A stretch of DNA of 64,000 nucleotides. It comes from an uncultured Verrucomicrobiota bacterium. GTDB lineage: Bacteria > Verrucomicrobiota > Verrucomicrobiia > Verrucomicrobiales > DEV007. This document shows positions 6,435-61,239 of the stretch, in pieces. The position numbers were made by a program, and so were the translations under genes. Positions within the stretch are counted from its first letter, which is position 1, and each line of letters opens with the position of its first letter. The notes beneath the pieces were generated by a model, which was given only the letters and a program-made list of their open reading frames with translations, made no database searches and was not told the origin of the DNA. Where the stretch lies: contig CACIUL010000010.1 in NCBI GenBank assembly GCA_902589825.1, positions 116 to 64,115 on the forward strand, in the 5' to 3' direction.

Positions 6435-6440
6435 TAACGC

Positions 6441-7601: not shown

Positions 7602-7619
7602 TCCTGACTGATTAATCAC

Positions 7620-8102: not shown

Positions 8103-8218
8103 TCGCGCCCGCCTGCCTTTGCTCACTGCACCAAAAAGAAATCATCTCCTTAAATAAGGATTCCCCTTGCCTATAGGCAGACTCAGCAGTTCTTTGTTTA
8201 CAGGTTTTAATTTCACAC

Positions 8219-8746
8219 GTGAACGCCATTGCGCCTATTTATGTTGGACAATTCCAGGACGGTGTTGTCTGGATCAGAGTCGAAGGTAAAGGCTCATTCC
8301 AGAACAGCCCCGAACTCAAGGAATTCGCCCTGCACATGATCAAGCGCGGTGCGACCAAATTTGTGATCGACCTGGAAAACTGTCCCGTGATGGACTCGAC
8401 CTTCATGGGTACCCTGGTGGGAATCGTAAAGCACCAGGATCCCGACAGGGAATCCAGCTTTGAAATTCTCAACGCCAATGCCCGCAACCTTCAACTCATC
8501 CAAAGCCTTGGCCTTGATCAGTTGCTGACCCTTGATGCAGATGGCAGCAAGTGGCCCGCTATCCGCAATCAAGTGCCTGCACTTATTGAAAACGGGAATC
8601 CACTTGAGCACATTGATCTGGAAAAACGGGAAAATAATGCACATGTTCTGGAAGCCCACCAGCAACTCAGTGCGACCAGCGGTGAGAATACCACACGCTT
8701 CCACGACGTGATCGAATTCCTGAAAAAGGAAATGCAGGGCGACTAG
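8219..8746 (+). CDS. STAS-domain protein (anti-sigma-factor antagonist-like)
   Basis: GTG start, 175 aa. STAS-like core with a candidate phospho-Ser context (VMDSTFMGTL) plus a C-terminal extension of roughly 60 aa. Confidence 0.6.
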   Translation: MNAIAPIYVGQFQDGVVWIRVEGKGSFQNSPELKEFALHMIKRGATKFVIDLENCPVMDSTFMGTLVGIVKHQDPDRESSFEILNANARNLQLIQSLGLDQLLTLDADGSKWPAIRNQVPALIENGNPLEHIDLEKRENNAHVLEAHQQLSATSGENTTRFHDVIEFLKKEMQGD

Positions 8747-8814
8747 CCTTCCTGGGTGGTCATGGCCAAGATGTTTCAAGGAACACCATCATCAGGGGGA
8801 AGGCAGTCGTTGTA

Positions 8815-24191: not shown

Positions 24192-24473
24192 TCAACCGGT
24201 AATGGAGAAACCTTTTAAATCCTGCATTTCCGACAGCGGGATCTCTTCCTCGAGACACTCAAGGATATGGTGAGACAAGTTTGATTCATCACGTATCTCC
24301 TGCAAAAACGCCTCCACCTCCTCCACTTCCCCCATGGCACAAAGCTCTACCCTGCCATCTCCCAGGTTGCGTACCGTGCCAACCACATCAAAGCCCATCG
24401 CCAGTTGCTTTGTCCCATAGCGGAAACCCACGCCCTGCACGCGGCCTGCAAAGAACACTTTTTTGGCAATCAT
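24192..24473 (-). CDS. acyP: Acylphosphatase
   Basis: 93 aa with motif GRVQGVGFRY. Its ATG overlaps the stop of the upstream gene (ATGA at 24470-24473). Confidence 0.8.
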   Translation of the reverse strand: MIAKKVFFAGRVQGVGFRYGTKQLAMGFDVVGTVRNLGDGRVELCAMGEVEEVEAFLQEIRDESNLSHHILECLEEEIPLSEMQDLKGFSITG

Positions 24474-45562: not shown

Positions 45563-46525
45563 ATGAACAATCACAGGCAACTCAATCCCTTGCTTTGGTT
45601 AAGGGAAAACCCGATTGCAACAGCTCTTTTGCTCACAATCACCGGGACTCTCGTTTATTTTTACGGTGCCATAGAGCTATTTGGCAATTATCGCAAACAA
45701 ACGGTGATTTACTGGATATGGGCTATTTGCGGCAAAACAGAGTATGATTACGGTCACGGTCGCTTTGTGCCTTTGGCGATGGCGTTTTTAATCTTCCGGG
45801 CACGAAAAAAAATCCTTTCTGCCCCGCGCTCAAGCGAATGGTGGGGGCTGGCCATCCTGATATTGGGAATATTCTTCTATATTGTGGCGTATCGCACCAT
45901 TCAGGCCAGGGTAGCGGCAGGGTCAATCCCGTTTGTCTTGTATGGGCTCATTGCGTTTATCTGGGGCCGGCATGTGGCCCGGCACTTCATATTTCCTTTA
46001 ATACTTGTATATTTCGCCATTCCCCTGCCCGGCCTTACACAGGCAACCAACGGCCTGCAGGTTATCGCCACGCAGATCGCATACCATGTCTCATCAATCT
46101 GTGGTGCCGATATTATCGCCGCGGGGACAAACATTCAGTCAGCGGCAGGAAAATGGGATGCCCTGGCCATCGCCGAAGGGTGCTCTGGGGTCAGGTCTTT
46201 AATAGCCCTTACATTCATTGCGGCTGTATACGGCAACCTGACCCAAGACAAAGTATGGAAACACATCGTTCTCATCGGTGTTTCAGTGCCCCTGGCAATC
46301 CTTGCCAATTCTATAAGGGTCACCACCATTATCTTGATCGCTGAATACGGGGATGCGGAATTTGCAGCCAAGACCTACCACAATTTTTCCGGTTTCATCT
46401 TCTTCCCGATGGGTCTTGCAGGGCTGCTGCTTTGCGGTTTCCTGATCAATGGCGGCTGGAAAAGGGAGCGTCAAAAAACAACCACGAGGATTATTCAATC
46501 AGGTGCTGAGAAGCCCCGCGAATAA
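45563..46525 (+). CDS. Exosortase (EpsH-family transpeptidase)
   Basis: 320 aa, polytopic. Candidate catalytic Cys in IAEGCSGVRSL, Arg in LANSIRVTTI, and His in KTYHNFSGFIFFP. It sits immediately upstream of an EpsI gene. Confidence 0.8.
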   Translation: MNNHRQLNPLLWLRENPIATALLLTITGTLVYFYGAIELFGNYRKQTVIYWIWAICGKTEYDYGHGRFVPLAMAFLIFRARKKILSAPRSSEWWGLAILILGIFFYIVAYRTIQARVAAGSIPFVLYGLIAFIWGRHVARHFIFPLILVYFAIPLPGLTQATNGLQVIATQIAYHVSSICGADIIAAGTNIQSAAGKWDALAIAEGCSGVRSLIALTFIAAVYGNLTQDKVWKHIVLIGVSVPLAILANSIRVTTIILIAEYGDAEFAAKTYHNFSGFIFFPMGLAGLLLCGFLINGGWKRERQKTTTRIIQSGAEKPRE

Positions 46526-46534
46526 AGAATAAGC

Positions 46535-47239
46535 ATGATTTGTAAACTGCTCATCACCCAGGCTGTTCTGGGCATTGGCCTCAGCGGAATCTACCTGCTG
46601 CCCGAGACCGTCAGCATGAGGCAGTCGGCGATTGTCATGAGTCTGCCCTCAGACCAGCCAGGCTGGAAATTCGAGCCTTCCGAACCCTCAAAACAAGTCC
46701 TCGATGCCCTTGCAGATGATACTGGTCATGAACAAGGTTTCTATTATCGAACAACCCCGGGAAGAATTGGAAAACTGGATTTAATCCGGGCTTATATTGT
46801 CCTTTCCGGTGAAGACATGAACAACAGTATTCATCGCCCTGAACGTTGCCTTTATGCGCAGGGTTTTGAAATACTGGATTCACAAACTATTGATATTGAA
46901 GTGGGTGAAGGCGTTACCATACCTGCTCAAAAGCTGACCGCCGAACATCGCTCATCAGGCATCAAGCAGGTATCCTATTACTGGTTTACGGGCGCTGAGG
47001 TAATTACTTCAAGCCATTATCAAAGAACTCTAACGGACATATGGGACAGGTTGATTACCGGCACCAATCAGCAATGGGCCTTCGTGACAATCTCGGCCTC
47101 CCTCAATGGTGAACCTCCCCTGACCCACCATGATGAGCAATACACTAATAAAATGCTCAGCCAATTCATCAGCGAAATTTTCCGCAAGATCCATAAGGTC
47201 GAACAACTTGGTGGAAAATGGAATCCTGCCGGGCCATAG
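46535..47239 (+). CDS. EpsI-family exosortase-associated protein
   Basis: One TM helix followed by a periplasmic domain with the motif HRPERCLYAQGF. It starts 9 nt after the exosortase stop. Confidence 0.75.
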   Translation: MICKLLITQAVLGIGLSGIYLLPETVSMRQSAIVMSLPSDQPGWKFEPSEPSKQVLDALADDTGHEQGFYYRTTPGRIGKLDLIRAYIVLSGEDMNNSIHRPERCLYAQGFEILDSQTIDIEVGEGVTIPAQKLTAEHRSSGIKQVSYYWFTGAEVITSSHYQRTLTDIWDRLITGTNQQWAFVTISASLNGEPPLTHHDEQYTNKMLSQFISEIFRKIHKVEQLGGKWNPAGP

Positions 47240-47270
47240 CTGAGTTGCCGCCATCCCAACTGTCCGGCCC

Positions 47271-48173
47271 ATGAAAATCATTCATCCAAGCCTGTACCGT
47301 CGTCCTGAGCTCTTCTTCAGGCCTTCACAAATTATCCGCAGAATCCTGTGGGAATTCAAACGCCCAAAAAAGAATGTACTAGTGAGTTTACCTTGGGGTT
47401 TACAGGTCAATGTCTCACCCAATGACCGGATAGGTGCCTCAATTCTCAAAACCGGCAGCTACGACACGGCAGTCCTGGAATGCCTGTACCGACTGGTGGA
47501 TGAGGAAGACCTCTGCCTGGATATCGGGGCAAATTTCGGGCTGATGACCGGAGTGATGGCCCTGGCCGCAGGCAAGAGGGGCAAGATTATCGCTTTTGAG
47601 CCGCACCCGGAAATAGCCAGCAGCCTGCAAGAGCATATTGAAAGATGGCGGGAGACTCCCCGCCTTGGCACCATTCAGGTCATCAACAAGGCCGTAAGTG
47701 AGAGAGCCGGAACGGCACAACTTGAAATTCCAGGGGAATTCCACTGCAACCGCGGGACAGCAAGGATTCATCAAGCAGGAGAGACCGGGGAAACAATGAA
47801 GCTGATCAAGGTCGACACGATCTGCCTGGATAATTTACTTGATGATCCCCAAGTAAGAATAGGAATGCTCAAGATTGACATCGAAGGACATGAAAAAGCC
47901 GCGCTTTCCGGCGCGGCTGGCTTATTAAAACGCGGTGCAATCCGCGATATCATCTATGAAGAGCAGGCTGAATATCCTTCCCCTGTCAGTAAATACCTGG
48001 AGCAGTTCGGGTATACAATCTACCTGATCCGGAAAGGTCTGCTGAAGCCCATTCTGATGCCTCCTGAGACTCCGCTTTATGAGCTGGGTAACTATTTGGC
48101 CACGCGCAATCCACAAAGGGTGGAAAAACGCATCGCCAACAAGGGTTACAGTATACTGCGCAACCTCTGTTAA
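47271..48173 (+). CDS. FkbM-family methyltransferase
   Basis: CLDIGANFGLMTGVMA...IIAFEPHPE...LKIDIEGHEKAAL. Confidence 0.75.
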   Translation: MKIIHPSLYRRPELFFRPSQIIRRILWEFKRPKKNVLVSLPWGLQVNVSPNDRIGASILKTGSYDTAVLECLYRLVDEEDLCLDIGANFGLMTGVMALAAGKRGKIIAFEPHPEIASSLQEHIERWRETPRLGTIQVINKAVSERAGTAQLEIPGEFHCNRGTARIHQAGETGETMKLIKVDTICLDNLLDDPQVRIGMLKIDIEGHEKAALSGAAGLLKRGAIRDIIYEEQAEYPSPVSKYLEQFGYTIYLIRKGLLKPILMPPETPLYELGNYLATRNPQRVEKRIANKGYSILRNLC

Positions 48174-49264
48174 GCGCTCCCGCCAGGAAGCTCAAACTGT
48201 GAGGATTCAGGGTAGAGCTCCTCCATGAACTGCACGAAATGCTCTATCTCACTGGGAGAAATATCCACACCACGCTCCTCCTGGATACAAAAAGCCCGGC
48301 CGCTCATCCTGCGAATCCTCTCTGCAACCTTTGAATTTTCATCACCTGAAAGACCCCAGCAATACATATCCTTCTCAAGCAATCGCGGCGGCACCAGGTC
48401 CGCACATCGTGCCTGACAAGCAAGATATGGGACGAGAAAACTGTGTAGGGCATACATCGAGGTGGAACGAAACCGCGATGCGCGTGTCGCTTCGAAAGCT
48501 TCTGGAAATCGCTCAGAGGCAAATTCCAGCAACAGCTTGTTGTGGGCATATGGACGATGCATGACAGTAAGGCGGGCATGCTTGCCGAAGCATTCATCAA
48601 GCAAACGGTTGACGTTCTTGTGCCCGGCCGAATCGCCTTCTTCCTCAGGAGAAGGCATTCCTTTTGGGGAAAGTGCTCGACCAAGTCGCACCCTGATCAA
48701 TCCGTCAGAAGCATAATACTGCCCAACATCCATTTCCCGACGGAGGAAAAAGTCATCGTTGAAATATATAAACCGGTCACTTAATCCGGGAATATTAAAG
48801 AAATAAGATTCTATGGCCTGGGTATTGTAGTTCGGGTAATGCGCAGGGTCAGTAATGATGTCTTTTGCCTCCACGACACGAATCTTCGGATGATCAATAT
48901 CAAGCCATGCAGGCAGTTGTCCATCGACCACGATATGGATTAACCGTACTCCCTTCAGGTAACGATCAACCGAGCGCAAAGAATAGCGCAATTCATCAAG
49001 TGAACTGGTTGGCCGCTTGGTCTGGATTCCTATGCGGCAGAAATCATCACGGGTTTCATCCTCAAGCACCTGCTGACGACGCTCTGCCCATAAATCATCA
49101 CTGGGGTCGCTCCAGAGATACACGACATCAACATCCCATATATGCTCACGGGGCCCCCGCCTATAACGCATGAAAAGATGGCGCAACTCAACAATGCCGG
49201 AAACAGTGACTATGCGGGATATCTCAAAAATCCGCACTAGGCTTCTTATGATCCTGGCTAACAA
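48170..49264 (-). CDS. Stealth-family protein (capsule-type hexose-1-phosphoryltransferase-like)
   Basis: Stealth conserved regions are visible: DVDVVYLWSDPSD (CR1), LDELRYSLRSVDRYLKGVRLIHIVVDGQLPAWL (CR2), and NTQAIESYFFNIPGLSDRFIYFNDDFFL (CR3). TTG start in the ORF track; an ATG alternative lies downstream. Confidence 0.75.
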   Translation of the reverse strand: MLARIIRSLVRIFEISRIVTVSGIVELRHLFMRYRRGPREHIWDVDVVYLWSDPSDDLWAERRQQVLEDETRDDFCRIGIQTKRPTSSLDELRYSLRSVDRYLKGVRLIHIVVDGQLPAWLDIDHPKIRVVEAKDIITDPAHYPNYNTQAIESYFFNIPGLSDRFIYFNDDFFLRREMDVGQYYASDGLIRVRLGRALSPKGMPSPEEEGDSAGHKNVNRLLDECFGKHARLTVMHRPYAHNKLLLEFASERFPEAFEATRASRFRSTSMYALHSFLVPYLACQARCADLVPPRLLEKDMYCWGLSGDENSKVAERIRRMSGRAFCIQEERGVDISPSEIEHFVQFMEELYPESSQFELPGGSA

Positions 49265-49433
49265 GGTGGTAACTAATCCCCCTGGGTGTAACTATAATTT
49301 AATGCGCTGACCTTATCTTTAAAACAACATCAAAGCCATTGGTCAAAGACAGCAAAAAGCAAGGATGTTTCATTTTAAATCTAGGTTAAAACTCAGTATG
49401 CATGACGCATGCCTGAATATATGCACTGATGGG

Positions 49434-51425
49434 TCACGGGATAACCTTGGCAGCCTGTCGATCTTTCAGCTGTTTTATCAAGGCCAGGGCACTCTTTGCC
49501 CCTGAACCTGCGCGATGCCCGCGGGGAGCCCCCTGCACGAAGAATTCAGGCACCCTCTTGAACTCTACAAGGGCCAGTTTTGCCTCCTTGGCTGCATCCT
49601 GCAATCGCCCAATCCTGTTTAAATAATAGGCATAATTGAGGCGGTAAAGGGCATGGGCTTCACGTGGCTTATACTTGGTCGGCGCCAGTGAGATGGCATT
49701 TTCAAAATGCTCTCTGGCACTCTGCCAGTAACCGCCCGCATCGGAAGCAGCGCCATGCCATGCGAGAAACATTTCACAATTACCTGCTCCGATATGGGAA
49801 AACCCATCAAAAGGATGTATTTCAATTGCTTTCAGGTAGGCAGCACGGGCCTTGCCTTGAAATTGTACTTTCACAAACGCCGGCAAGTTAGCTTCCTTTT
49901 TGAAATACCTGATCAGCCCCAGGCTGCGCCAGGGGTCGGCATTGGACGGGTCAAGCTCGATTGCCTTCTGGAGATGAACAACAGCCAGGTCAGGGCTGCC
50001 TCCCTTGACCTGCAAATGCCCCTTCTCCAGTTCCCAGCTGGCCTTGCCAAACCGTGCAAAAAAAACAACCAGGGCAATCCCGCACAATGCAGCTGCCCAG
50101 CGTATGCCGAGGTCAACACCAGAATGCCCGGGTTGATTGTCCCTGGGCTTGGGATTAGCCACAACGGCCAAGCAAAATACAATTGCCAGCCCGGTAACCG
50201 GCAACCTGACATGAAAATCCACAAAGGCCTGAAAGAGGTGCGCGCCAATAACCGCCAAGGCCCCGGCCACGAGGGCAAACTCCAGGGAATCCATTGAAGA
50301 CCGATTGGCATGGTCCCGCGACCGGCAATGATCACGTATTTTTCTGGCAGCATGGAAAACATGCGCAAAGAGGACAAGCAATACCAGCAAGAGTCCTACA
50401 ATGCCGTATTCAGCCGCCTGTTGAAGATAATCATTATGGGCAAACTCAGGATCGCGTTGATGGAACGGTGCCTCTGGAGGACGATACGCAGGATATTGGT
50501 AATGAAAGCTTCTTGCACCTGTGCCGAAAACCGGTGCTGAAATCCACTGGTCAATGGCACCTGCCCAGAAATTACCCCTTGAAGAAATTGAAAAAGCCTG
50601 ATCGACAGAATCGAAGCGCTTACTGAAGGCGGAAAAGGCAATGATCCCGACAACACAAGTGATAGCGACAACCCCAAATGCCCACCGGGTAATGTTCCTC
50701 ATGGCCCACTGAGCCTTTCCCTGGCCGCGAAGCCTCATGAAAAAAATGATGGCTAGAATCATCCCGCCGGGCACCAATCCCAGGAACACACCCCGGCTCT
50801 GGCTTAAGGCAATCCCTACAAGCGCAATTGCCGCACAAATAAGAGTTGCCGCCCTGATCGATTTCGCCACATGCGCAAACACTCCAATAGCAACCCCGAA
50901 GAGGACCGTGATCACAAGGAACCCGGCAAAATGCGGGTGCAGGTTGAAAAACCCCCCCGGTCGCAAAAGCTGCCCACCTGATCCCTGTCGCTCATAACCG
51001 GGTAAAATATTGAAGCCAAGATCAACCTGTAGTTGATAAACTGCTATGCATGTGTTCGCGATGCCAAGCAGAAGTAATAGAAAAAGAAAAGACAACCGGG
51101 CACGTGAACCGGACAAACACGTTGAAAATACAATATAAAAACCGAACAGGGTAAGTACCAGGATGACGTCAAGCCTTGCCAGGTAAGAAACCGGTGACAT
51201 CGAGGCACGGGTAACCATGTAAGCAAACAATGCCACCACGGCAAGGTAACAGAAGAGCGGTGGGCGGACCCTTTGATCCTTGCAGCGAATCAGTGGCAAC
51301 ATTACAAACCCGAGCCCCAGCAGCATCAGTCCCGGCCACTGGAAAACGACCTTGGTGCCGGTTCCGACCACTCCAATCCACAGGTAACCCAGCAAAATCA
51401 CGATAACCAAAAACGCACGCATCAT
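49434..51425 (-). CDS. O-antigen ligase/polymerase-like (Wzy_C) membrane protein fused to C-terminal TPR repeats
   Basis: 663 aa with about 10 or more TM helices. Wzy_C-like loop (LSQSRGVFLGL...FGTGARSFHYQY...EFAHNDYLQ). The C-terminal ~200 aa is TPR-like (AVVHLQKAIELDPSNADPWRSLG...AAYLKAIEIHP). Confidence 0.7.
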   Translation of the reverse strand: MMRAFLVIVILLGYLWIGVVGTGTKVVFQWPGLMLLGLGFVMLPLIRCKDQRVRPPLFCYLAVVALFAYMVTRASMSPVSYLARLDVILVLTLFGFYIVFSTCLSGSRARLSFLFLLLLLGIANTCIAVYQLQVDLGFNILPGYERQGSGGQLLRPGGFFNLHPHFAGFLVITVLFGVAIGVFAHVAKSIRAATLICAAIALVGIALSQSRGVFLGLVPGGMILAIIFFMRLRGQGKAQWAMRNITRWAFGVVAITCVVGIIAFSAFSKRFDSVDQAFSISSRGNFWAGAIDQWISAPVFGTGARSFHYQYPAYRPPEAPFHQRDPEFAHNDYLQQAAEYGIVGLLLVLLVLFAHVFHAARKIRDHCRSRDHANRSSMDSLEFALVAGALAVIGAHLFQAFVDFHVRLPVTGLAIVFCLAVVANPKPRDNQPGHSGVDLGIRWAAALCGIALVVFFARFGKASWELEKGHLQVKGGSPDLAVVHLQKAIELDPSNADPWRSLGLIRYFKKEANLPAFVKVQFQGKARAAYLKAIEIHPFDGFSHIGAGNCEMFLAWHGAASDAGGYWQSAREHFENAISLAPTKYKPREAHALYRLNYAYYLNRIGRLQDAAKEAKLALVEFKRVPEFFVQGAPRGHRAGSGAKSALALIKQLKDRQAAKVIP

Positions 51426-52555
51426 GGATTGCCTTCCTCCTTCCCAATTACGGCATCAAATACCTCGCGCATGCCTGTGAGGAAGGCACCCTGTGTGTAT
51501 TTTGAAACATATCTGGCTTCTGCCGCTAGAGACATTGCCTGGTTTTTCTTTCTATCTGTCATTACAGCCTCAATGGCATCTGCAAACTGATCGGTAGAGC
51601 TCACGTCGCAAAGTATCCCTGTCTCTCCTTCAACAACCATTTGCGGAATACCGCGCCAACGGGTTGCCACCACGGGAAGGCCGAAAGCCATTGCCTCAAT
51701 AAGCACAAGGGGGAAATTCTCGCTCTCGTAATAAGATGGGAAAAAGAACAGGGAAGCTTCCTTGTAAAGCATCCATTTCTTATCACCCGTGATTCGTCCA
51801 TGCACGACAATGGAGTCGGCAACATCCGCCTCCTGCACGGCAGCCTCAAATCGGCGGCGGGTATCTTCCTCCTGCCAGGGCCCCGCAACATCAAGCATGA
51901 AGTCCATTCCGCGGGCTTTCAGGGCTGAAGCTGTGTGGACAAGGTCCATCACACCCTTTGTTTTGCGCAGGCCAGCCATGTAGAGAATCCGAAAAGGCAG
52001 TTTATCAGGACTTGTCCCCGGATCACTATTCACGCCGGGAACATCCAGGCCATTGGCAACATGGAACTTTTGCTCAGCAACAAACTCCACGCCCGGACCA
52101 ATCTCACTTTTGGAAATCTCAATGCTGGCCTTCGCCCGTCCATAGGCACACCGTGCAAGGAAGCGCAAAAAGGGATTCAGTGAAGCCACGTATGCCGGCA
52201 ATCCACCGGCATGGTAGTGCAGTATCATCCCCCTGGAAAACGGCCTGACCGCAAACAGGTAGACGATATCCCTCAACACGGGGATCAGGTTTGGACTAGC
52301 AGGGGGATAATAGATAAAACAGGGACGGTTACGGAGAAGAATCCACCAGGATTTAACTATTAATGCCATTAAATGGAATAGTTTACTGATGCCGAACTTC
52401 CCGACATCAGCCTCTCCACTGCTGTATGCCATACGCAGACGTAACACCTTCAGACCTGGCCAATCATGATCAAAAAGAATCTTGGTCGCCACCGCCTGCC
52501 CATGGAAGGGTGGCGGGGTCTGGCCGACAAGGAGAATTGAGGCTCGCTTAGACAC
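51422..52555 (-). CDS. Glycosyltransferase, GT4 (group 1) family
   Basis: EX7E region FFFPSYYESENFPLVLIEAMAFGLPVVAT...GETGIL. Its stop overlaps the downstream start. Confidence 0.8.
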   Translation of the reverse strand: MSKRASILLVGQTPPPFHGQAVATKILFDHDWPGLKVLRLRMAYSSGEADVGKFGISKLFHLMALIVKSWWILLRNRPCFIYYPPASPNLIPVLRDIVYLFAVRPFSRGMILHYHAGGLPAYVASLNPFLRFLARCAYGRAKASIEISKSEIGPGVEFVAEQKFHVANGLDVPGVNSDPGTSPDKLPFRILYMAGLRKTKGVMDLVHTASALKARGMDFMLDVAGPWQEEDTRRRFEAAVQEADVADSIVVHGRITGDKKWMLYKEASLFFFPSYYESENFPLVLIEAMAFGLPVVATRWRGIPQMVVEGETGILCDVSSTDQFADAIEAVMTDRKKNQAMSLAAEARYVSKYTQGAFLTGMREVFDAVIGKEEGNP

Positions 52556-52616
52556 GTTAAATAATCAGTTTTGCAGACAAACACTCGCCGGGGATTTCAG
52601 TTCCACCGGAGCGCTT

Positions 52617-53312
52617 TTACTGGCAAAGCCTGCGCGTGGCCTTGCGGATTTTTAGTGCAAGTAATGCTGCGTCCATCAGTATAATCAGCACCATGCCTCC
52701 AAGGGGATAAATAATCTCTCCTGTAAAGTAACCTGCAAGAGGGCAAGCGAGGAACATAATCGCATGCTTGTCGGGAAAGCTTCCCGGCGGAAGCAAGCCG
52801 TTGCGGGAAAGCCAGCTTTGCTTGTCAGCCACGAAATGTGACCAGCTCCCTTCAATTTCCCGCTCAAGAAAATCATTCAGGTAGTTATTAATTCCACGCA
52901 AACCAAGAAGTGCCGTCACCAGCGCCATTGATTGCCAGGAAACTCCCATGCCGAATCCCAGACCAATAACGTTCAATATATAGACCAAGTGGTTAACAAG
53001 CCCATCGTAGAAGGCTCCAAAGGCAGAAGTCTTGCCGGTTAATCTGGCAACCTTGCCATCAACCCAGTCAAGCACCATGCACAACTGGTATACCAACACG
53101 GCGGCAACCGTGTGTTCCAGCAGGAAAAACACGGCAGAAAGAACTCCCAAAAGCAATGAAACAGTTGTCACCTGATTAGGGTGCACACGAGGAAAGAATT
53201 TGAGTAGCAGCCAGGCAATTAACGAGGAGGATGGGACAAGAAAACACTTTCCCCACCAAGCCTCTAATGACCTGCGGGTTTTCCTGTGCATCTCAAACAA
53301 TGACATCTTCAT
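52617..53312 (-). CDS. CDP-alcohol phosphatidyltransferase-family membrane protein (variant motif)
   Basis: Reads DWVDGKVARLTGKTSAFGAFYDGLVN, i.e. DxxDGxxAR-x8-G-x3-D-x3-N, with Asn where the family's last Asp is expected. Confidence 0.65.
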   Translation of the reverse strand: MKMSLFEMHRKTRRSLEAWWGKCFLVPSSSLIAWLLLKFFPRVHPNQVTTVSLLLGVLSAVFFLLEHTVAAVLVYQLCMVLDWVDGKVARLTGKTSAFGAFYDGLVNHLVYILNVIGLGFGMGVSWQSMALVTALLGLRGINNYLNDFLEREIEGSWSHFVADKQSWLSRNGLLPPGSFPDKHAIMFLACPLAGYFTGEIIYPLGGMVLIILMDAALLALKIRKATRRLCQ

Positions 53313-53453
53313 GGCTTTAATTTCTTATGGGGAATCATAACTGCATTCTCATTCCGTATATCGCAAATGACCCCTTTTAATCTTGCATAAGTCAATGGGC
53401 TCCATGCAGGGCGGCCGCAACCGGTCATTGAGGGACACTCTAGTGACAACCTT

Positions 53454-55001
53454 TCAAACTGCAGAAGGAACAGGACGGTTTAATCGATCCAATGCGGAAT
53501 CATCCAGATCTTGCCCTTCCTCAAGGGTCACGCCCGATGCGCTTTCATCACTTTGTTCCAGGATGCTTTTATTCATCACGGCCAAAACCGCAAGAAGGGT
53601 CCAAAACATGATCGCAGTGTAGGGAGCCTCAAATGTCGATTGGAAGAATGCGTTAACAAACCCGGCCAGAACAAATGCCCATGTAAATGCATAACGTGGG
53701 TCACATTGGCTCCCATGCCTGCGCATGATATCGACACCAATCCATAATTCCTTCATGATCAATACCGCTATCGGTATGAAGATGACCAACCCGATCAGTC
53801 CCATGCGCCCGAGTATGGTAAAAACAATATTGTGCGGATAACGCGCTCTCTTTTGAGCCGTGTTGATAAAAGGACTGTTGTTAAACTTGGCGTGAAATTC
53901 AGACGAAATATCTGAACCCATTCCCAGCCCGAATAACGGCCTTTTTTCCATCACGTCTTCTGTCACCATCGTCCACCAGGTCAACCTCCACTCCACCGTC
54001 CGTTGCCCATGTTTTTGCTGGGATCCACCAACACCAAAAACGTCAAAAGATGAGAACTCATCGAGGAAACGACTGAATTTACGGTCATTATCCTTAACAA
54101 TCCCGGATTGAATCAATACCATGAGCAGGAGAACCGCACCGATTCCCATTGGGATCATGGTGAACAAAATCTTCCAATGCCCAACGATCATCAGCGCCAC
54201 GATGTAAGCAAAGAAAGCAACATAGAAAACCGCCTTGCCGTGATAGAAAAGTGGAGCGGTACATGCAATGGATGAGATCAGGTAGATGCTTTTTAGTATA
54301 CCGTCGCTTTGCAACGATTTAATGTAAGCAAACGCGGAAAACGCAATACACACGGGAATCATCGCATCCACTGTCTGTAATATCAGTGGGGCTCCACGAA
54401 TCATGCTGGCGTTACCTAATGTGACACCTAGCTTTCCGAAAACAGTAACCGTGTATAGCAGGAGAGAAACTGCCGCAATCACCGGCAATAATTTCAATAT
54501 ATAATCACGGGTTGGCTTATGCTGCATTGAGCCATAAACCAGAAAGAAAAAAAGCGCGTAATAAACTGTCGCCGTATCCCGCAAGACCATAATCAAGGGG
54601 AACTCCCGCCTGTCGATCAGAAGGTGAATAAAACCATATACAAGAAAAACCAGCAGTGGCACGGTAAGGCGATGCTTAGGAACCAGGGATGTTGCACCAG
54701 TCATCACCCTGACAACATGGAAAAGCAACAACATGGCAAGGGTTGCCTCACCCACATAAATAATGGCAACGACACGCTGATAGGAAAACCCCTTCCCACC
54801 AAGAAAATAACAGGCAACAATAATGGCAATGAACCATCCCTCAAACCTGTAGCGCTTGCCGATAATGGTCATCAGCACAGCAAAAGCGGTGCCTGCAGCA
54901 ACAAATCCAGCCTTGCCATATTCCCCGTTGCCAACGGCAAGACCCGTCCACAGGGCAATAAACAAACCAACAATCATGGCTATGATGAATTGGATATTCA
55001 T
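53454..55001 (-). CDS. O-antigen ligase/polymerase-like (Wzy-type) membrane protein
   Basis: 515 aa, polytopic. Contains a periplasmic loop with ARYPHNIVFTILGRMGLIG. The gene is visibly AT-rich. Confidence 0.65.
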   Translation of the reverse strand: MNIQFIIAMIVGLFIALWTGLAVGNGEYGKAGFVAAGTAFAVLMTIIGKRYRFEGWFIAIIVACYFLGGKGFSYQRVVAIIYVGEATLAMLLLFHVVRVMTGATSLVPKHRLTVPLLVFLVYGFIHLLIDRREFPLIMVLRDTATVYYALFFFLVYGSMQHKPTRDYILKLLPVIAAVSLLLYTVTVFGKLGVTLGNASMIRGAPLILQTVDAMIPVCIAFSAFAYIKSLQSDGILKSIYLISSIACTAPLFYHGKAVFYVAFFAYIVALMIVGHWKILFTMIPMGIGAVLLLMVLIQSGIVKDNDRKFSRFLDEFSSFDVFGVGGSQQKHGQRTVEWRLTWWTMVTEDVMEKRPLFGLGMGSDISSEFHAKFNNSPFINTAQKRARYPHNIVFTILGRMGLIGLVIFIPIAVLIMKELWIGVDIMRRHGSQCDPRYAFTWAFVLAGFVNAFFQSTFEAPYTAIMFWTLLAVLAVMNKSILEQSDESASGVTLEEGQDLDDSALDRLNRPVPSAV

Positions 55002-55048: not shown

Positions 55049-58000
55049 TCAGGACCTCGGGGAAATCCTGACCCGGTAAAATCCCTTTTCACCGGCAGGT
55101 GGGCGCAAGACGACCTTCTCAATCCCGTCACCTATATAGTTACGCGTCAATGCAGATTCGGGAAGCGCCTCCCAAGTATTTTCATCGGTAAGTTTCTCGA
55201 GATACGTTTTGTAGTAATGCCGGAAAACAGCACGTGACCTCTGAAACTCAATGACAGGAAACTTCAGATCTTCGATCCCGGCCTCCAGCCGGTAAACCGA
55301 ACCTGCATCCCCGGGATTTCCACCAAAAACAAATTCCATGAAGTTCGGCTGTAAGTCCCCGTCATCATCCTGGGCACCATCCGCGGTGCCTACTTTAAGG
55401 CCGGATTGCAATTCCCACCTGTCATGCATGCCGTCATTGTCAGCATCCAGCCACTCCGCCGGGCTGCTGCCTTGAGCAAGTTCATCAATGTTGTTCACCC
55501 CGTCGAAGTCATCGTCCCCGGAAGAGTCATCAGACAATGGATCCAAGCGGTTCCCAAGTTCCCAACCATCATGCATGCCATCACGGTCCGTATCTGCAAG
55601 GAGCTGATCCGTGCCTGCTATGATCTCTTGCCGATACGCTACACCGTCGCCATCGAGGTCCTCATCAGGGTCATTCACCAGGTTAATGGTAAGAATCGCA
55701 TCTGCAAAATTAATGCCATCTCCTGCACGGACCTTGATCTGCAACATGCTTGTTCGGGATAAAATCTTCTGATTAAGCCGCAAGCCCTGGGGAATATCCA
55801 GCTGCCCATCACCGCGACGCCCCCATCCAACCAGTGTGCCATCGGACTTCAACGCTATACTGTGATAGCCTCCTGCAAAAATGGCGATCACGCCTGTCAA
55901 TCCCTCGGGAACACCTGCCTGCCCATAATTATTGCGGCCCCAGGCCACAACAGTGCCATTTTCCCTGAGGGCAAGGTTGTGGTAACCGCCTGCGGCAAGG
56001 GCCACTACATTTTTTAAACCGGCAGGCACAATCCTTTGGCGATAGGTATTATGCCCCCACGCAGCAACGGTGCCGTCAACCTTCAGCGCAAGGCTATGCA
56101 GATATCCGGCGGCAATCGATGTCGCCGGGCCAAGACGTAATGGAACATTACGCTGCCCGTGAGTGTTTAAACCCCAGGTAACAATCGTTCCTTCATGATT
56201 CAGTACCATGGAATGATGCGCCCCTGCCGCTATAGCACGCACCTCACCCAGCCTGCTTGCCGAGGGCACATTGGCCTGTCCGTATTGATTACGCCCCCAG
56301 GCAACCACCCTGCCGTTAGCCTGCAAGGCAAGGTTGTGATATCCGGAAGTGGCTATTGCCGTGGCCCTGGACAGGTCCAAGGGAACATCTGCCTGCCCAT
56401 AGTTATTGGCCCCCCAGGCAACCACAACACCATCCTCCTGCAGGACCAAGCTGTGATAAAACCCTGCCGCAATCGCAATGGGCGAACTCATCTCGATAGG
56501 AACAACAGCCTGACCATCATTATCCCTTCCCCACCCGGTAACGTGCCCATCTGACCCGAGGGCAACGGAATGATAACCACCGGCAGCAACAGGAATACTC
56601 CGGGCGAGATCATTCAAGTCACCGGAATCATTAACCAAAAGGCGGTTGCCCTCGATTCTGAAGGCAGGATTACCGTCATGATCAGGGTCCTCATTATTGA
56701 TGATATCATATTCGATAATATCGCCATTAGGATCCATAACAGGCAAAACCCCTATAACCGTGTTGAGCGTGCTGGTTCTTGAAATGGAGAAATTTCGCTC
56801 AGAGAATGTCGGAGGCAAATCCGGGACGCTGAGCGGATCATTAGGGTCGGTGCCAAGGGAAAGCTCCTCGCCATCGTCAAACCCGTCACCATCGGTATCC
56901 TGCAGGGTAAAATCAGTGCCATAATGCACCTCTTTGACATCACTTACCCCATCACCATCAGTGTCCAGGCCAGAATTGTTTACTAGCGGGTTCCAGTTGT
57001 TGGCTATCTCCCAGAAGTCATCAAGTGTATCCCCATCAGTATCCGTTAACCTTGGATTTGTGCCTTGCCCAAATTCCTCAAGGTCAGTCAATCCGTCTGC
57101 ATCCGAGTCGCCTTGGGTGTCATATTTGAGGGGATCAATCCCATGCTTGTCTTCCCAGCCATCAGGCATCCCGTCTCCATCGGAATCCGGGTTATCAGGA
57201 AAGGTGCCGAGTTTGTTTTCTTCCACCAAACTCAAGCCATCATTATCGGTATCAATAACGGAGTCATCACGACGCGGATTCCAATTGTTATTAACCTCCC
57301 AGAGGTCAGTAAGTGTATCTCCATCGGTATCTTTTAAGAGCGGATTGGTACGGTTGCGAAATTCCACTATGTTGGTTAATCCATCATTATCAGGATCTTC
57401 CCCGGGGCCATCAACACTACCGTATTCAATCTCCCACCAATCGCTCATGCCATCGCCATCACTATCCATCATGCCCAGCCCAGATGACTGGTATTTTGCA
57501 CATAGCATGGCTTCAACCTCTCGTCTGTCCACATGACTCAAGGCCTGGGAGTAAGTAACCACTTCACTATAATCGGCTGGCTGGTATGCCAAGCCGCCAA
57601 TATGCCCAATCCACAATGAGCGGTCATTGGGTGGTATCAGTCCTTCAACCCTGGCCTGCTCCTCACCATCGACATACATCCTGCCCTCTTCATTGAAACC
57701 ATCATATACCAGGGTGACTATCCGTAATTTTTCCCTGTCCAAGCGCCTGAACGAGCGCACCGATAGCGGCTTGTCAGGCTGTGTTGAATAGAAATGCAGG
57801 TAACCTTGATCCAAAGTGAGCCTGAATCCGCTTTCACGCCAAACACTGTTGCCGGCTAGTGCATAAGTGCCGGCGGATACACCCTCCGAGCGCATTTTGA
57901 CCGCCATGATCAACGTCCATCCTCCCGATGCAGCATCCCCAAAGACCAAACCATTTCTGGTCTTTAAGCTGCCCGGACCAAAAGAAATCCCTGGATAACC

Positions 58001-60109
58001 ATTGATCAGTTCCCCCGTCATCACGGGAGCCTCGTGATTATAAGGCCTGCTCATCCTTATCTCTCCATCATCTTTCCACCCTTGCCATGGGGTAATCTTG
58101 CCGGATTCATTCATCGAGAGTGGTCCATTGGACTTAAGCCACATAGTGAGAGCAGCACTGGGAACAGCCCCCAATAGCGGATTACGCAGGCGTGGCATCG
58201 TACCCGACTCAAACTCTTCAATGTTATTCAGGTCATCATGATCCGGATCGTCAAGGGAATCGGCAGCCAGAGGATTCAGCTCATTCTGTATCTCCCAGCC
58301 ATCAGGCATCCCGTCACTATCCGTATCATCAAGGATGGGATTTGTGTCCGAAAAGTACTCCTCCAGGTTGGTGACTCCATCCTCATCAAAATCATCGCCT
58401 GAATCTTGGCGACGTGGATCCAGCCCATGGAGAATTTCCCATTCATCGGGCATCCCGTCACTATCATTATCAATAAGCTGATCTGGATCTGGATCAAGAA
58501 ACGGTGCCTTAAGCTCTGAATAGCTTACCCCTGTTATTGCCTGAATAAGAGCATCCAGTTCTGGATTATTGTTGTTAAAAAATGACTTGTGCCTGCCTAT
58601 GAATTGACTTCCCTCATCCTGACCAATTCCCCGCCATTCCCTCCATTTGTAGTATGCGCCGACAAACTCCTCCTCACTATCACCTTGTGAATACCAGTGG
58701 AAACTGCCCAGGGAAGGAGCGCCCGTGTAATATGTATTACGCTCCCAAAGATTACCTGCTTCAAGGAAATCCTGATAGACATCCCAGCCAAAGCTGCCGT
58801 ACTGCAGGCCGTTATATCCGCCTTTCGGCATCACAATTACATTGTCATGAATATGATTGTGCTCAGTAATATGTGTTCCACAAACCCCATCCGTATGACT
58901 CGGGCGGTGCTGATTAATAATTGAGATCCCGCCACCTCGTGCACCTTCATCCGGTGCGGCTTCAAAATAATTATGGTGCACATTGGCTGACTCGGAATTC
59001 TGGATCACAAACGGGACTCCCCACAACAACCCCCCCCGGGGAACCAGTCCATTCCAGCGGAGGACATTATTGCGTATTTCGCAATTGCAACTCAACTCAA
59101 AGAGTAATCCCTCCCAGGAATTATATTCACTGAGGTTTTCCTCGAACAGGCTGTCATGGGAGTTGATATCAAACCAGAACCCCGGGCCTGTATTATGGTG
59201 TGCATAATTGCGGCGAACAACCATCCCCTTGGACCCGGGCATCTTGGCGCCACCCCTCGACCAGTTACCCGAAAATCCCGCCCATCCATTATAGGCAAAC
59301 TCACAGTATTCTATCACCGTATCCTGCCCGCCATCATGCAGGCCCGCCAGGCCATTCCAGAGAAACCTTGAATTTTTGACATGTGAATAACTGCTGACAC
59401 GGATACCTGTGGCATGACATCCACTGATCATACATCCATCAATTAAGGCGTTCTCGCCCAAATGCACTGCCGCACTTTGACCCACCGTGGGAAATTTTTC
59501 ACAATGTATATTTTTTAAACTCACATCAGGCGCACTTGTCCTGATCGCGTATCGGCACAGACCGCTCAATTCCATCTTCTTTTGCGTAGGATCAAAGCGT
59601 ATATAGATTTTGTCCGCTTCATAATCATAGGCCCAGGAATTCTCATCATGCACCAGGGCAGGTGCGTATTTCTGGATAATCGGAAGATCATCAGCAAAAA
59701 GGTCATGTGGCCACCTCGCCCGCAATTCCCAATAATGCGCTGTCGGGTCATGCTCAGGAACCGCTTTCGAATGCGGCCCATCATGCACCCAGAAAGGATC
59801 TTCAAACCGCCATCCATCAAGTAACTCTGCGCCTGAAAGAACTGCCCCAGGTTGTCCCGACAAGCTATCGCCAGCTTTCAATACGAGTTCGTGACCACGG
59901 TGTATACCTGTCTCCAGCTCATATACACTGCCTGCCGGATGACTGTCTATTATGGCCTGTAGATCGCCATTATGTGGAAGCAAAATGACATCTTGAGCCC
60001 TAACTGATGGCCAAATGTATATGATGGCCATGCAGAAAAGCGCAGGCAGCTTGAAGCCCGGGGCTGACATAGGTTTCAGCAAAAATTGCGGCATTCGGTT
60101 ACCCGGCAT
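55049..60109 (-). CDS. Giant secreted multidomain protein: parallel beta-helix + TSP3-like Ca-binding repeats + LamG-like + cadherin-like + 7 RCC1-like repeats + C-terminal DxDGD...GFYRVRI module
   Basis: 1686 aa with a signal peptide ending VRAQ. The PbH1-like repeats run approx nt 58600-59960. DxDxDG..D..E repeats form three blocks (approx 58190-58500, 56830-57480, 55390-55690). The LamG-like region is approx 57500-58160. Seven G(G/F)YHS.AL...G.V..WG.N..GQ units lie at approx 55790-56600. Confidence 0.8.
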   Translation of the reverse strand: MPGNRMPQFLLKPMSAPGFKLPALFCMAIIYIWPSVRAQDVILLPHNGDLQAIIDSHPAGSVYELETGIHRGHELVLKAGDSLSGQPGAVLSGAELLDGWRFEDPFWVHDGPHSKAVPEHDPTAHYWELRARWPHDLFADDLPIIQKYAPALVHDENSWAYDYEADKIYIRFDPTQKKMELSGLCRYAIRTSAPDVSLKNIHCEKFPTVGQSAAVHLGENALIDGCMISGCHATGIRVSSYSHVKNSRFLWNGLAGLHDGGQDTVIEYCEFAYNGWAGFSGNWSRGGAKMPGSKGMVVRRNYAHHNTGPGFWFDINSHDSLFEENLSEYNSWEGLLFELSCNCEIRNNVLRWNGLVPRGGLLWGVPFVIQNSESANVHHNYFEAAPDEGARGGGISIINQHRPSHTDGVCGTHITEHNHIHDNVIVMPKGGYNGLQYGSFGWDVYQDFLEAGNLWERNTYYTGAPSLGSFHWYSQGDSEEEFVGAYYKWREWRGIGQDEGSQFIGRHKSFFNNNNPELDALIQAITGVSYSELKAPFLDPDPDQLIDNDSDGMPDEWEILHGLDPRRQDSGDDFDEDGVTNLEEYFSDTNPILDDTDSDGMPDGWEIQNELNPLAADSLDDPDHDDLNNIEEFESGTMPRLRNPLLGAVPSAALTMWLKSNGPLSMNESGKITPWQGWKDDGEIRMSRPYNHEAPVMTGELINGYPGISFGPGSLKTRNGLVFGDAASGGWTLIMAVKMRSEGVSAGTYALAGNSVWRESGFRLTLDQGYLHFYSTQPDKPLSVRSFRRLDREKLRIVTLVYDGFNEEGRMYVDGEEQARVEGLIPPNDRSLWIGHIGGLAYQPADYSEVVTYSQALSHVDRREVEAMLCAKYQSSGLGMMDSDGDGMSDWWEIEYGSVDGPGEDPDNDGLTNIVEFRNRTNPLLKDTDGDTLTDLWEVNNNWNPRRDDSVIDTDNDGLSLVEENKLGTFPDNPDSDGDGMPDGWEDKHGIDPLKYDTQGDSDADGLTDLEEFGQGTNPRLTDTDGDTLDDFWEIANNWNPLVNNSGLDTDGDGVSDVKEVHYGTDFTLQDTDGDGFDDGEELSLGTDPNDPLSVPDLPPTFSERNFSISRTSTLNTVIGVLPVMDPNGDIIEYDIINNEDPDHDGNPAFRIEGNRLLVNDSGDLNDLARSIPVAAGGYHSVALGSDGHVTGWGRDNDGQAVVPIEMSSPIAIAAGFYHSLVLQEDGVVVAWGANNYGQADVPLDLSRATAIATSGYHNLALQANGRVVAWGRNQYGQANVPSASRLGEVRAIAAGAHHSMVLNHEGTIVTWGLNTHGQRNVPLRLGPATSIAAGYLHSLALKVDGTVAAWGHNTYRQRIVPAGLKNVVALAAGGYHNLALRENGTVVAWGRNNYGQAGVPEGLTGVIAIFAGGYHSIALKSDGTLVGWGRRGDGQLDIPQGLRLNQKILSRTSMLQIKVRAGDGINFADAILTINLVNDPDEDLDGDGVAYRQEIIAGTDQLLADTDRDGMHDGWELGNRLDPLSDDSSGDDDFDGVNNIDELAQGSSPAEWLDADNDGMHDRWELQSGLKVGTADGAQDDDGDLQPNFMEFVFGGNPGDAGSVYRLEAGIEDLKFPVIEFQRSRAVFRHYYKTYLEKLTDENTWEALPESALTRNYIGDGIEKVVLRPPAGEKGFYRVRISPRS

Positions 60110-60117
60110 TTCTTATA

Positions 60118-61239
60118 TCATGGTTTCAAGGAAGGACTTGTGAGCTCCTGCAGAAAAGCCATGCGCTTGCCCTCCCAGTATTCACTGCCTACGTAAGGGC
60201 TGACTTCCTCCAGGGAAATACGTCGTCCTGTCATCGTGTTGACAAAGTCCATGATCTTATCCTTCGCAACAAGAATTCCACCCGGGTTGTTGGGAACCTT
60301 AAGGACCCAATCCGGTGTATCTCTGCCCAAAAAGGCAGTGTCCTCATAAGGCAAGATGACAGGTAATCCTGCCGCTAAATAATCCCGAACCTTCAATGGA
60401 CAGGCCTCTTCCATGTCTTTGGTATGGAGTCCCGCTGTACCCAGCCCACACGAGGCACCCCTAAAAACATTCTGAAATTCCGTTTCATTAAGAAATGAAT
60501 GCCATTGCACATTTACAGGCAGCCTGTGCCGGGAAGGTTCATAGCCGGCAACCAAGTCAAATTCGAGTTTTCCTTTGGTCTGCTCTGCAAGCTTGAGGAC
60601 ATCATCAACGCCGTGCCACGGATTGTCTGCACCAATCATGTAGACCACCCGGGGTAACCCATCAGCACATCCCTCAAATCTGACCGTGGACTTGCCGGCC
60701 AAGTTTGTCGAGTTGGGAATGGCCATGGTTGGCATTCCTGCCAATTGCACTTTCCGGTTATCAAGAATTTCCTGAGTCACTCCAATGAACGCTGCTGCAC
60801 ACTTTTCAAACTTTGCCCCTGTTGCCAGGTAATAAAGGTATCTGAGCCTGTCTACAATACTAGTCTTTGCCCTGCTCTTGAACTCACTGTTATAAATAGC
60901 ATTGAGCTCAATGCAGGTAGGAATTTCCAGCATCAATCGAGCTAGAGAAGACTTATAAAACTCCCACCGCAAATAATTAACATCGGGATTGAAATCCCTT
61001 ACTGCATTGCAGAGTTCCCTGTATGTTTTCCGGTTGGTTATTAAGGCCAGAGGATTATTCCAGATTCTCCGTCGTTGAAAAATATTCGCTGGGAATGGAG
61101 CGTCTGTTTTGAGATAGCTAGCACAAAAAACCTCAACCTCATGGCCAAGTGCGCGCCATGCATTCACCTGTTGTTCCACCTTGCTGGTAACCCCGTCCCG
61201 TTGACGAAGGTTCCATGTCAAAATATATGCAATCCTCAT
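60118..61239 (-). CDS. Glycosyltransferase (GT-B fold, GT4-like)
   Basis: 373 aa, starting MRIAYILTWNL. The C-terminal half has a GT-B-like sugar-donor region (GLPVILPYED). The assignment is weaker than for 51422-52555. Confidence 0.55.
   Translation of the reverse strand: MRIAYILTWNLRQRDGVTSKVEQQVNAWRALGHEVEVFCASYLKTDAPFPANIFQRRRIWNNPLALITNRKTYRELCNAVRDFNPDVNYLRWEFYKSSLARLMLEIPTCIELNAIYNSEFKSRAKTSIVDRLRYLYYLATGAKFEKCAAAFIGVTQEILDNRKVQLAGMPTMAIPNSTNLAGKSTVRFEGCADGLPRVVYMIGADNPWHGVDDVLKLAEQTKGKLEFDLVAGYEPSRHRLPVNVQWHSFLNETEFQNVFRGASCGLGTAGLHTKDMEEACPLKVRDYLAAGLPVILPYEDTAFLGRDTPDWVLKVPNNPGGILVAKDKIMDFVNTMTGRRISLEEVSPYVGSEYWEGKRMAFLQELTSPSLKP

Follow-up and report, generated by a model that had tools for sequence, protein, structure and literature searches.

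Background

What does a secreted protein of 1686 residues do in the middle of a cluster of polysaccharide biosynthesis genes? The question is raised by a 64,000-nucleotide stretch of DNA (hereafter the window) from an uncultured Verrucomicrobiota bacterium of the order Verrucomicrobiales (DEV007; assembly GCA_902589825.1, contig CACIUL010000010.1, positions 116 to 64,115, forward strand), in which a giant gene on the minus strand lies between a glycosyltransferase (GT) gene and a Wzy-like gene. A preliminary description, made from the letters of the window, had read its product as a signal peptide followed by a beta-helix, calcium-binding repeats, lectin-like and propeller modules and a conserved C-terminal tail. 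In the reading preferred here, to which we assign a probability of roughly 0.55, the product of the gene is a glycosidase, secreted and built of several domains, that processes polysaccharide and belongs to an exosortase-associated Wzx/Wzy-type locus; as the gene holds a fixed place in a conserved polysaccharide and exosortase cluster, the most likely task of the protein is to trim or remodel the polymer on the surface of its own cell.

Exopolysaccharide (EPS) loci often encode a glycosidase of their own that controls polymer length, release and biofilm architecture. Processing enzymes of this kind include PslG (glycoside hydrolase family GH39), BcsZ (GH8), PelA, AlgL, ExoK/ExsH (GH16) and Rhizobium PlyA/PlyB, all encoded in EPS operons, and ExsH and PlyA/PlyB carry Ca-binding repeats. 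Because a processing glycosidase in an EPS locus is already a known kind of enzyme, the novelty here lies in the domain, its fusion, the insertion and the locus. Marine Verrucomicrobiales are abundant and uncultured glycan specialists of the ocean, and we know of no such processing enzyme that has been pointed out for them or for exosortase-associated loci. New, too, is the fixed place of the gene among exosortase-locus genes in this uncultured marine group.

All peptide motifs quoted in the preliminary description were found in the translation of 55049..60109, while public gene calls start 5 codons later and give 1681 aa (P0001). The close homologues all come from metagenome-assembled genomes (MAGs) of uncultured marine Verrucomicrobiales, Verrucomicrobiaceae or Akkermansiaceae. 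Databases name the proteins with the catalytic domain only as "right-handed parallel beta-helix repeat-containing protein", and literature searches returned no description of the protein family or of its C-terminal domain.

A GH120-like beta-helix domain

A parallel beta-helix of about 430 aa had been proposed for the N-terminal part of the protein. This fold was confirmed by Pfam, AlphaFold2 (AF2) and Foldseek, and the domain is now drawn at about 500 aa. Pfam Beta_helix (PF13229) matches residues 219-380 (E 6.5e-16), and the AF2 model of the domain reached a predicted local distance difference test score (pLDDT) of 91.2 and a predicted template modelling score (pTM) of 0.91. With this model the top PDB match in Foldseek was XylC of Thermoanaerobacterium saccharolyticum (3vst_A; GH120; E 3.8e-12, TMq 0.58), ranked before GH141 BT_1002, AlgE6/AlgE4, the Klebsiella K1 capsule lyase, GH110 and polysaccharide lyase family 6 (PL6). 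The same enzyme was the best match (E 1.3e-10) when the family alignment was run as a HMMER profile (A2) against all PDB sequences, and this match spans the inserted sandwich region as well as the catalytic coils: XylC residues 69-275, with the inserted beta-sandwich subdomain at 76-200, are paired with profile positions 85-245, and the model carries a beta-rich insert at about residues 95-170. The right-handed beta-helix is common to both proteins, and a beta-rich insertion close to the N-terminus probably is as well. XylC differs in being a stand-alone enzyme of a thermophilic Firmicute that lacks TSP3, LamG and propeller modules and is encoded outside EPS loci, and its substrate is almost certainly another one. 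Relatives in a viral fold library were generic tailspike depolymerases only, none of them nearer than XylC.

The beta-helix is the best-conserved part of the protein (56-89% identity among orthologues, compared with 36-79% for LamG and values down to 22-26% for the tail), which fits a role as the functional core. A search with this domain alone retrieved distant relatives at 23-34% identity, many of them fused to the carbohydrate-binding modules (CBMs) CBM6, CBM35 or NPCBM, as in glycan-active enzymes, and some carrying PF14592.

Conservation of the catalytic positions was judged on a 23-sequence alignment with identities down to 23%, in which 17 columns are invariant, K289, D314 and E338 among them. 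These three residues align with Lys358, Asp382 and Glu405 of XylC, a retaining enzyme in which Asp382 acts as the nucleophile, Glu405 as the general acid/base, and Lys358 hydrogen-bonds the nucleophile (PMC3507262). They are spaced by 25 and 24 residues, i.e., one helix turn and the same one-coil spacing as in XylC, and each is set on the strand of a successive coil in the AF2 model.

It is unlikely, in our judgement, that the beta-helix is instead a polysaccharide lyase or C5-epimerase (PL6, AlgG/AlgE-like or K1-lyase-like) acting by beta-elimination chemistry on a uronic-acid locus polymer. AlgE6 and AlgE4 are the next-best profile matches (E 1.6e-8 and 1.4e-7), and Foldseek also retrieved AlgE, the K1 capsule lyase and PL6, with E-values between 1e-7 and 1e-5; moreover, a basic residue (RRNY) follows K289 by half a turn, and the UDP-sugar dehydrogenase and WbpB/E/D-like genes of related loci, together with the AsnB-like gene of the window, make (amidated) uronic acids possible. 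AlgE4/AlgE6 (2pyg, 5lw3) and AlgG also have a beta-helix of similar size and modify an exopolysaccharide at the polymer level, AlgE being Ca-dependent and modular. Yet XylC ranks ahead of all lyases and epimerases in both the profile and the Foldseek searches, and PL6 is matched by fold below XylC (E ~6e-6) and gave no match with the PDB sequence profile. As in GH120, the invariant Lys, Asp and Glu are placed on coils that follow one another, and they come one to three coils after the corresponding AlgE/AlgG segment. This triad would also set the domain apart from PL6 lyases, which use a Lys/Arg catalytic pair and a Ca2+ site that neutralises the uronate. In the HMMER alignment to AlgE6, the catalytic YG(F/I)DPH(D/E) position of AlgG/AlgE-type epimerases reads TGIRVSS, with neither Asp nor His and no Asp-Pro-His. 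Since the epimerase motif is missing, we prefer a glycoside hydrolase to a lyase or an epimerase. The depolymerase proposed in the preliminary description thus fits as a glycosidase, with XylC the best match by profile and fold and Lys, Asp and Glu invariant, while the epimerase offered next to it did not withstand the comparison with the AlgG/AlgE-type active site.

Gene order in the window and in related loci

The gene is separated by 8 bp from the upstream GT4 gene and by 47 bp from the downstream Wzy_C gene, and a terminator/promoter scan of both gaps gave no signal above shuffled controls, in agreement with the operon embedding proposed earlier. The conserved block downstream spans 45563..55001, with the FkbM, EpsI and exosortase genes divergent. 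Loci of orthologues were gathered by contig look-ups for three orthologues together with a scan in which each GTDB species was represented by a single genome; this resulted in 19 loci from about 15 species-level MAGs. At all 13 loci with enough downstream DNA, the gene is directly upstream of a Wzy_C-family gene of the same cluster, and in 12 of them the full order follows, with GT1, Wzy with tetratricopeptide repeats (TPR) and then, as far as the flanking DNA extends, Stealth, FkbM, EpsI, exosortase and PrsA. Locus L003 keeps a partial order, with a weakly similar Wzy gene further downstream and without Wzy+TPR, Stealth and FkbM. The GT4 gene is found upstream in 16 of the 19 loci, and the genes beyond it differ among loci (sugar-nucleotide pathways, a Wzx flippase, sulfotransferases in L003). 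Across the 13 loci the gene keeps its position at protein identities of ~50-80%. It thus belongs to the fixed core of a polysaccharide locus of the exosortase-linked Wzx/Wzy type. Synteny with EPS genes in relatives, on which the preliminary description had staked its case, was found, and the recurrence of the core gene order supports its suggestion of an action on the locus polymer.

As for the polymer itself, substituents linked by phosphodiesters are suggested by the presence of Stealth and CDP-alcohol transferases. TIGR02602, a generic model, is the only one whose cut-off the exosortase exceeds, and neither a subtype nor a cognate sorting motif can be derived from it.

Several further observations were made in the related loci. 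In L004 (positions 1-9896) the upstream genes resemble a WbpA/B/E/D-type pathway for a di-N-acyl amino-uronic acid, accompanied by a formyltransferase and a Wzx flippase, and the AsnB-type amidotransferase of the window occupies the same position as these pathway genes; judged from such gene content, the locus polymer may contain amidated amino-uronic acids. L003 holds an insertion sequence (IS; rve) element between GT1 and exosortase, and sulfotransferases. In L002 (13911-16176; GCA_045557275.1) the Wzy gene and the next gene are split into short ORFs (open reading frames) while the near-identical L001 is intact, which points to frameshifts or assembly errors. A contig labelled as a Flavobacteriaceae MAG (L017, PBCE01000008.1) carries a Verrucomicrobiales-type pair of GT4 and beta-helix genes (48% and 60% identity), and the label is probably a binning error.

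Calcium-binding repeats, lectin-like domain and propeller

The domain order given in the preliminary description was mostly recovered by domain searches, the cadherin modules being the part that had to be re-read. The three TSP3-like DxDxDG blocks it had named were matched by TSP3_bac (PF18884) in 6 stretches (E 2e-21, 75.8 bits vs a cut-off of 25), and they contain 16 DxDxD[GDNS] motifs. Three NCBIfam models were rejected as the family of the protein: MtsD and CglD match partially at 880-1020, through repeats only and far below their cut-offs (77 vs 800 and 61 vs 400 bits), and Amuc_1099 gave a repeat-level match that was likewise far under its cut-off. The LamG/ConA-like domain, also part of that order, was missed when the whole protein was scanned with Pfam, and was found when residues 635-880 were scanned alone, with Laminin_G_3 (PF13385) over the gathering score at residues 727-859 (E 1.8e-7, 31.9 bits vs a cut-off of 27.6); PF13385 is also present on the orthologues P0006, P0007, P0015 and P0019.

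The seven-unit RCC1-like propeller was borne out as well, with RCC1_2 in 7 stretches (E 1.5e-60), a Pfam match as RCC1_2 x7/WD40_RLD (E 6.5e-62), and, as best PDB sequence match, BLIP-II of Streptomyces exfoliatus (1jtd_B, E 8e-43) over ~250 residues (1190-1439). Both are seven-blade propellers of short RCC1_2 repeats, but the one described here is internal, probably nested in a cadherin-like domain, and limited to one subclade, and nothing suggests that it binds a beta-lactamase.

The two cadherin- or Ig-like modules described on either side of the propeller are cadherin-like only by way of another RCC1-containing protein, P0024, and are better read as one interrupted domain. Pfam cadherin (PF00028) matched neither propeller flank nor the two joined, and a profile of the joined flanks (A4) found nothing significant among PDB sequences. 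The N-terminal flank, however, is similar to residues 1032-1081 of P0024 (38% identity, blastp), a segment that is repeated in P0024 and is a Pfam Cadherin domain (E 3.7e-10). When the joined flanks were aligned by hhalign to an intact cadherin of P0024, the alignment crossed the junction (probability 83.7%, E 8e-6), pairing ...SMLQIKVRAGDG... with the cadherin F strand and the SMLQIKVRAGDGINFADAILTINLVND segment with the last strands. Because it runs through the junction, one split cadherin-like domain is preferred over two modules, and the simplest reading of this moderate sequence evidence is a propeller inserted in a loop of that domain. Within its N-terminal half, a DPDHDG motif (56687-56704, minus strand; residues 1141-1146) aligns with a D-rich loop of the P0024 cadherin and may be a Ca site of the cadherin-like domain and not a TSP3 repeat.

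The propeller and both cadherin halves (~residues 1090-1481) are missing from orthologues of ~1283 aa, which are the commoner forms, their clusters having as many as 376 members. In the 2023-aa orthologue P0008 (L003 10001-16072), two extra LamG-like units with TSP3 spacers take the place of the cadherin/propeller block. By these comparisons the block is an accessory, clade-specific insertion outside the conserved core. The "unusual domain combination" noted earlier consequently holds in that the architecture is new, i.e., a GH120-like domain fused to TSP3, LamG and the C-terminal domain, plus a propeller-in-cadherin insertion, but with the propeller block it describes a single subclade, most orthologues lacking this block.

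So many binding modules could also mean that the protein as a whole has no catalytic role and serves as a Ca-dependent matrix adhesin or scaffold, in which all modules bind ligands and which cross-links polymer, cells or surfaces. At the level of repeats the TSP3 blocks match MtsD and CglD, proteins of cohesion and gliding in Myxococcus; many Ca sites are predicted from the DxDxD[GDNS] motifs, modules such as LamG, the cadherin-like domain and the propeller typically bind ligands, and beta-helix adhesins exist, one of which (PfbA, 4mr0) is in the Foldseek list. We nevertheless find this improbable, as the MtsD and CglD scores are so low, the binding modules vary among orthologues (propeller present or absent, extra LamG units in P0008), the beta-helix is more conserved than every one of them, and Lys, Asp and Glu are invariant at the GH120 catalytic positions even at 23% identity.

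The C-terminal domain

The tail of the protein consists of a helix (NFMEFVFGGNP) and a seven-strand FN3/Ig-like sandwich that ends in GFYRVRIS. No Pfam or NCBIfam model covers it. The AF2 model, built from 38 sequences (pLDDT 89.7), has a short helix followed by the seven strands, and retrieved with Foldseek generic FN3/Ig domains only (best E 1.7e-3). A 12-sequence profile searched against 1.84 billion representative proteins matched at least 192 clusters with E<=1e-3, 17 of them with E<=1e-10, and most of the full-length matches end 0-7 residues from the C-terminus of proteins of 100-2100 aa, some of which have two copies. The carriers include Ig-repeat, RCC1, DUF5122 propeller and LamG proteins, C10/M4 peptidases and PhoD phosphatases. 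The domain follows the pattern NLxEYALGxDP ... YxxExSxDLxxW ... FxRLxV; the two named carriers in the homologue search are both Verrucomicrobia. Large ORFs in three Opitutia/Opitutales MAG loci also end with this domain, sometimes in tandem copies.

Within the window the domain is carried by the 1686-aa protein and by a subtilase only, which confirms that the tail is conserved, as described before, and common to these two proteins. The subtilase was matched by tblastn (E 7e-5) and by the tail hidden Markov model (E 6.7e-18, residues 687-779); the match ends 3 residues from the end of a 782-codon stop-to-stop frame (2208-4553), and the tail reads ...NLLEYAIGGNP...GFARLKVTRTSP.

Known sorting signals were considered and rejected. 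A PEP-CTERM/exosortase substrate would have a C-terminal PEP motif, a transmembrane helix and a basic cluster, but this tail ends in GFYRVRISPRS and lacks a hydrophobic helix, and no NCBIfam PEP-CTERM model matches it; a regex scan detected no PEP-CTERM-like tails among the window ORFs. A C-terminal domain (CTD) of the type IX secretion system (T9SS) or another known anchor was likewise discarded, as Foldseek gave generic FN3/Ig domains and there was no sequence match. The word "tethered" in the preliminary description is therefore not supported, since the protein has no transmembrane segment, lipobox, PEP-CTERM or other known anchor.

In Bacteroidota, T9SS CTDs end many unrelated secreted enzymes and adhesins. 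By analogy, the Verrucomicrobiota domain could be a phylum-wide C-terminal sorting or attachment domain with a comparable logic, a tentative idea that we regard as doubtful. Both are Ig-like sandwiches of ~90-100 aa at the extreme C-terminus of diverse secreted proteins within one phylum; they differ in that a TSP3-like Ca site and a helix come before the Verrucomicrobiota domain, which shows no sequence or Foldseek match to the T9SS CTD. If it were a sorting domain, it would deliver the GH120-like enzyme, subtilases, C10/M4 peptidases, PhoD and Ig/propeller proteins to the surface or matrix; the 1686-aa protein would then be a surface-held depolymerase, and its catalytic domain would found a new glycoside hydrolase family for exosortase-linked polymers. 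In any case, the shared domain is a separate lead on the sorting and retention of secreted proteins in Verrucomicrobiota.

Proposed function

In the proposed mechanism, the 1686-aa protein would be exported by the Sec pathway, and its beta-helix would cut a glycosidic bond in the polymer that its gene neighbours (GT4, GT1, Stealth, CDP-alcohol transferase and Wzy) produce, by double displacement with retention, in which Asp314 would be the nucleophile and Glu338 the acid/base. The LamG domain may contribute glycan binding, while the three TSP3 blocks, with at least 16 DxDxDG sites, would bind seawater Ca2+ and serve as stiff spacers. The C-terminal FN3-like domain, common to many secreted Verrucomicrobiota proteins, could act in export or in surface/matrix retention, and the cadherin-like domain with its nested BLIP-II-type propeller would be an accessory binding module of one subclade only. 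On balance, the protein would control the chain length of the cell's own extracellular polymer, release this polymer or remodel it.

By analogy, we infer that this role parallels that of PslG, BcsZ, PelA and ExoK/ExsH in their systems. Like these enzymes, and like AlgL and PlyA/PlyB, the protein would be a secreted, glycan-cleaving enzyme encoded in, and conserved with, a biosynthetic locus. It differs from them in its unrelated catalytic fold and family, in the far larger size of its family (orthologues range from 1283 to 2023 aa), in having TSP3 spacers, a LamG domain and a C-terminal domain specific to the lineage, and in the locus, here an exosortase/EpsI locus of Verrucomicrobiales whose own polymer is the presumed target.

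A number of points weigh against a glycosidase of the locus polymer. The beta-helix is only ~12% identical to XylC, with a TM-score of 0.58, and the -1 subsite of XylC is partly unconserved: Glu353 is replaced by Ser (in WSRGGAK) in this clade, and the positions of His360 and Trp383 read M/P and I. A xyloside substrate is consequently not expected, and the domain is called GH120-like, i.e., a distant relative with a different specificity and not a demonstrated GH120 member; it is possibly a new glycoside hydrolase family related to GH120. The case for the locus polymer as the substrate is circumstantial, as it comes from synteny, and the carriers of the family are exclusively uncultured MAGs without phenotypes. 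No anchor or outer-membrane secretion route was identified for the protein. The signal peptide of the preliminary description is present as a signal-like, hydrophobic N-terminus read by eye, with a hydrophobic core LPALFCMAIIYIWPS followed by VRA|QD and no lipobox; the N-termini of the orthologues are all hydrophobic and otherwise unconserved (4-52% identity).

The least probable of the alternatives is that the protein is a foraging enzyme for an exogenous (e.g., algal) polysaccharide, or else the acceptor glycoprotein of the adjacent Wzy_C/O-antigen-ligase-like enzyme: distant relatives do have CBMs of the sort usual in degradative enzymes, Verrucomicrobia of the sea degrade glycans (a sulfatase is encoded in the window), and the Wzy_C family includes protein O-oligosaccharyltransferases, but the slot between biosynthetic genes, kept at 13 of 13 loci down to ~50% identity, is unexpected for a forager, the window and related loci have no SusC/D, transporter or other degradative genes nearby, and the acceptor role has no direct evidence. 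If the protein is a processing glycosidase as preferred here, the family provides a catalytic candidate with three specific residues (K289, D314, E338) and a way into the chemistry of a polymer not isolated by anyone so far.

Table 1. Coordinates of the giant gene, its domains and putative catalytic positions, the surrounding genes, and carriers of the C-terminal domain. Positions are those of the window unless a locus is named.
Feature	Position	Strand	Basis or remark
Giant secreted-protein gene	55049..60109	minus	Uninterrupted ORF, ATG start, 1686 aa
Signal-peptide-like N-terminus, residues 1-38	59996..60109	minus	By-eye reading of translation
GH120-like right-handed beta-helix domain with inserted beta-rich subdomain, residues 39-540	58490..59995	minus	Pfam, AF2, Foldseek, profile
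Lys289, aligned with XylC Lys358	59243..59245	minus	Invariant (23 sequences); HMMER alignment
Asp314, aligned with XylC Asp382	59168..59170	minus	Invariant (23 sequences); HMMER alignment
Glu338, aligned with XylC Glu405	59096..59098	minus	Invariant (23 sequences); HMMER alignment
TSP3-like block 1, residues 541-634, 4 DxDxDG motifs	58208..58489	minus	TSP3_bac, motif positions
LamG/ConA-like lectin domain, residues 635-880	57470..58207	minus	PF13385
TSP3-like block 2, residues 881-1089	56843..57469	minus	TSP3_bac (best stretch 1071-1092), motif positions
Cadherin-like domain, N-terminal part, residues 1090-1171	56597..56842	minus	Similarity to P0024
Seven-blade BLIP-II/RCC1_2-type propeller, residues 1172-1444	55778..56596	minus	Pfam, PDB match
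Cadherin-like domain, C-terminal strands, residues 1445-1481 (...SMLQIKVRAGDGINFADAILTINLVND)	55667..55777	minus	hhalign with P0024 cadherin
TSP3-like block 3, residues 1482-1585	55355..55666	minus	TSP3_bac, motif positions
Conserved C-terminal domain, residues 1586-1686	55052..55354	minus	AF2, profile search
AsnB-type amidotransferase	61358-63373	minus	Upstream of GT4
GT4-like glycosyltransferase	60118-61239	minus	Pfam, weak; upstream neighbour
Wzy_C	53454-55001	minus	Pfam/NCBIfam; directly downstream
CDP-alcohol phosphatidyltransferase	52617-53312	minus	Pfam/NCBIfam
GT1	51422-52555	minus	Pfam/NCBIfam
Wzy_C+TPR	49434-51425	minus	Pfam/NCBIfam
Stealth-family hexose-1-phosphoryl transferase	48170-49264	minus	Pfam/NCBIfam
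FkbM methyltransferase	47271-48173	plus	Pfam/NCBIfam
EpsI	46535-47239	plus	Pfam/NCBIfam
Exosortase	45563-46525	plus	Pfam/NCBIfam
Subtilase S8 with proprotein-convertase P-domain, 773 aa	2235..4556	plus	Pfam; same C-terminal domain
Opitutia/Opitutales carriers of the C-terminal domain	L020 5213-13714; L020 13718-16876; L021 3-1886; L022 13878-17801

Further observations in the window

Elsewhere in the window, a 539-aa ORF (24470-26089, minus strand) has no Pfam family at E<=1e-3. A PSCyt1/PSCyt2/PSD1 (DUF1549/DUF1553) protein is encoded at 15507-17780 (plus strand) and a sulfatase at 36224-37729 (minus strand); proteins of both kinds are typical of marine glycan-degrading Planctomycetes and Verrucomicrobia.

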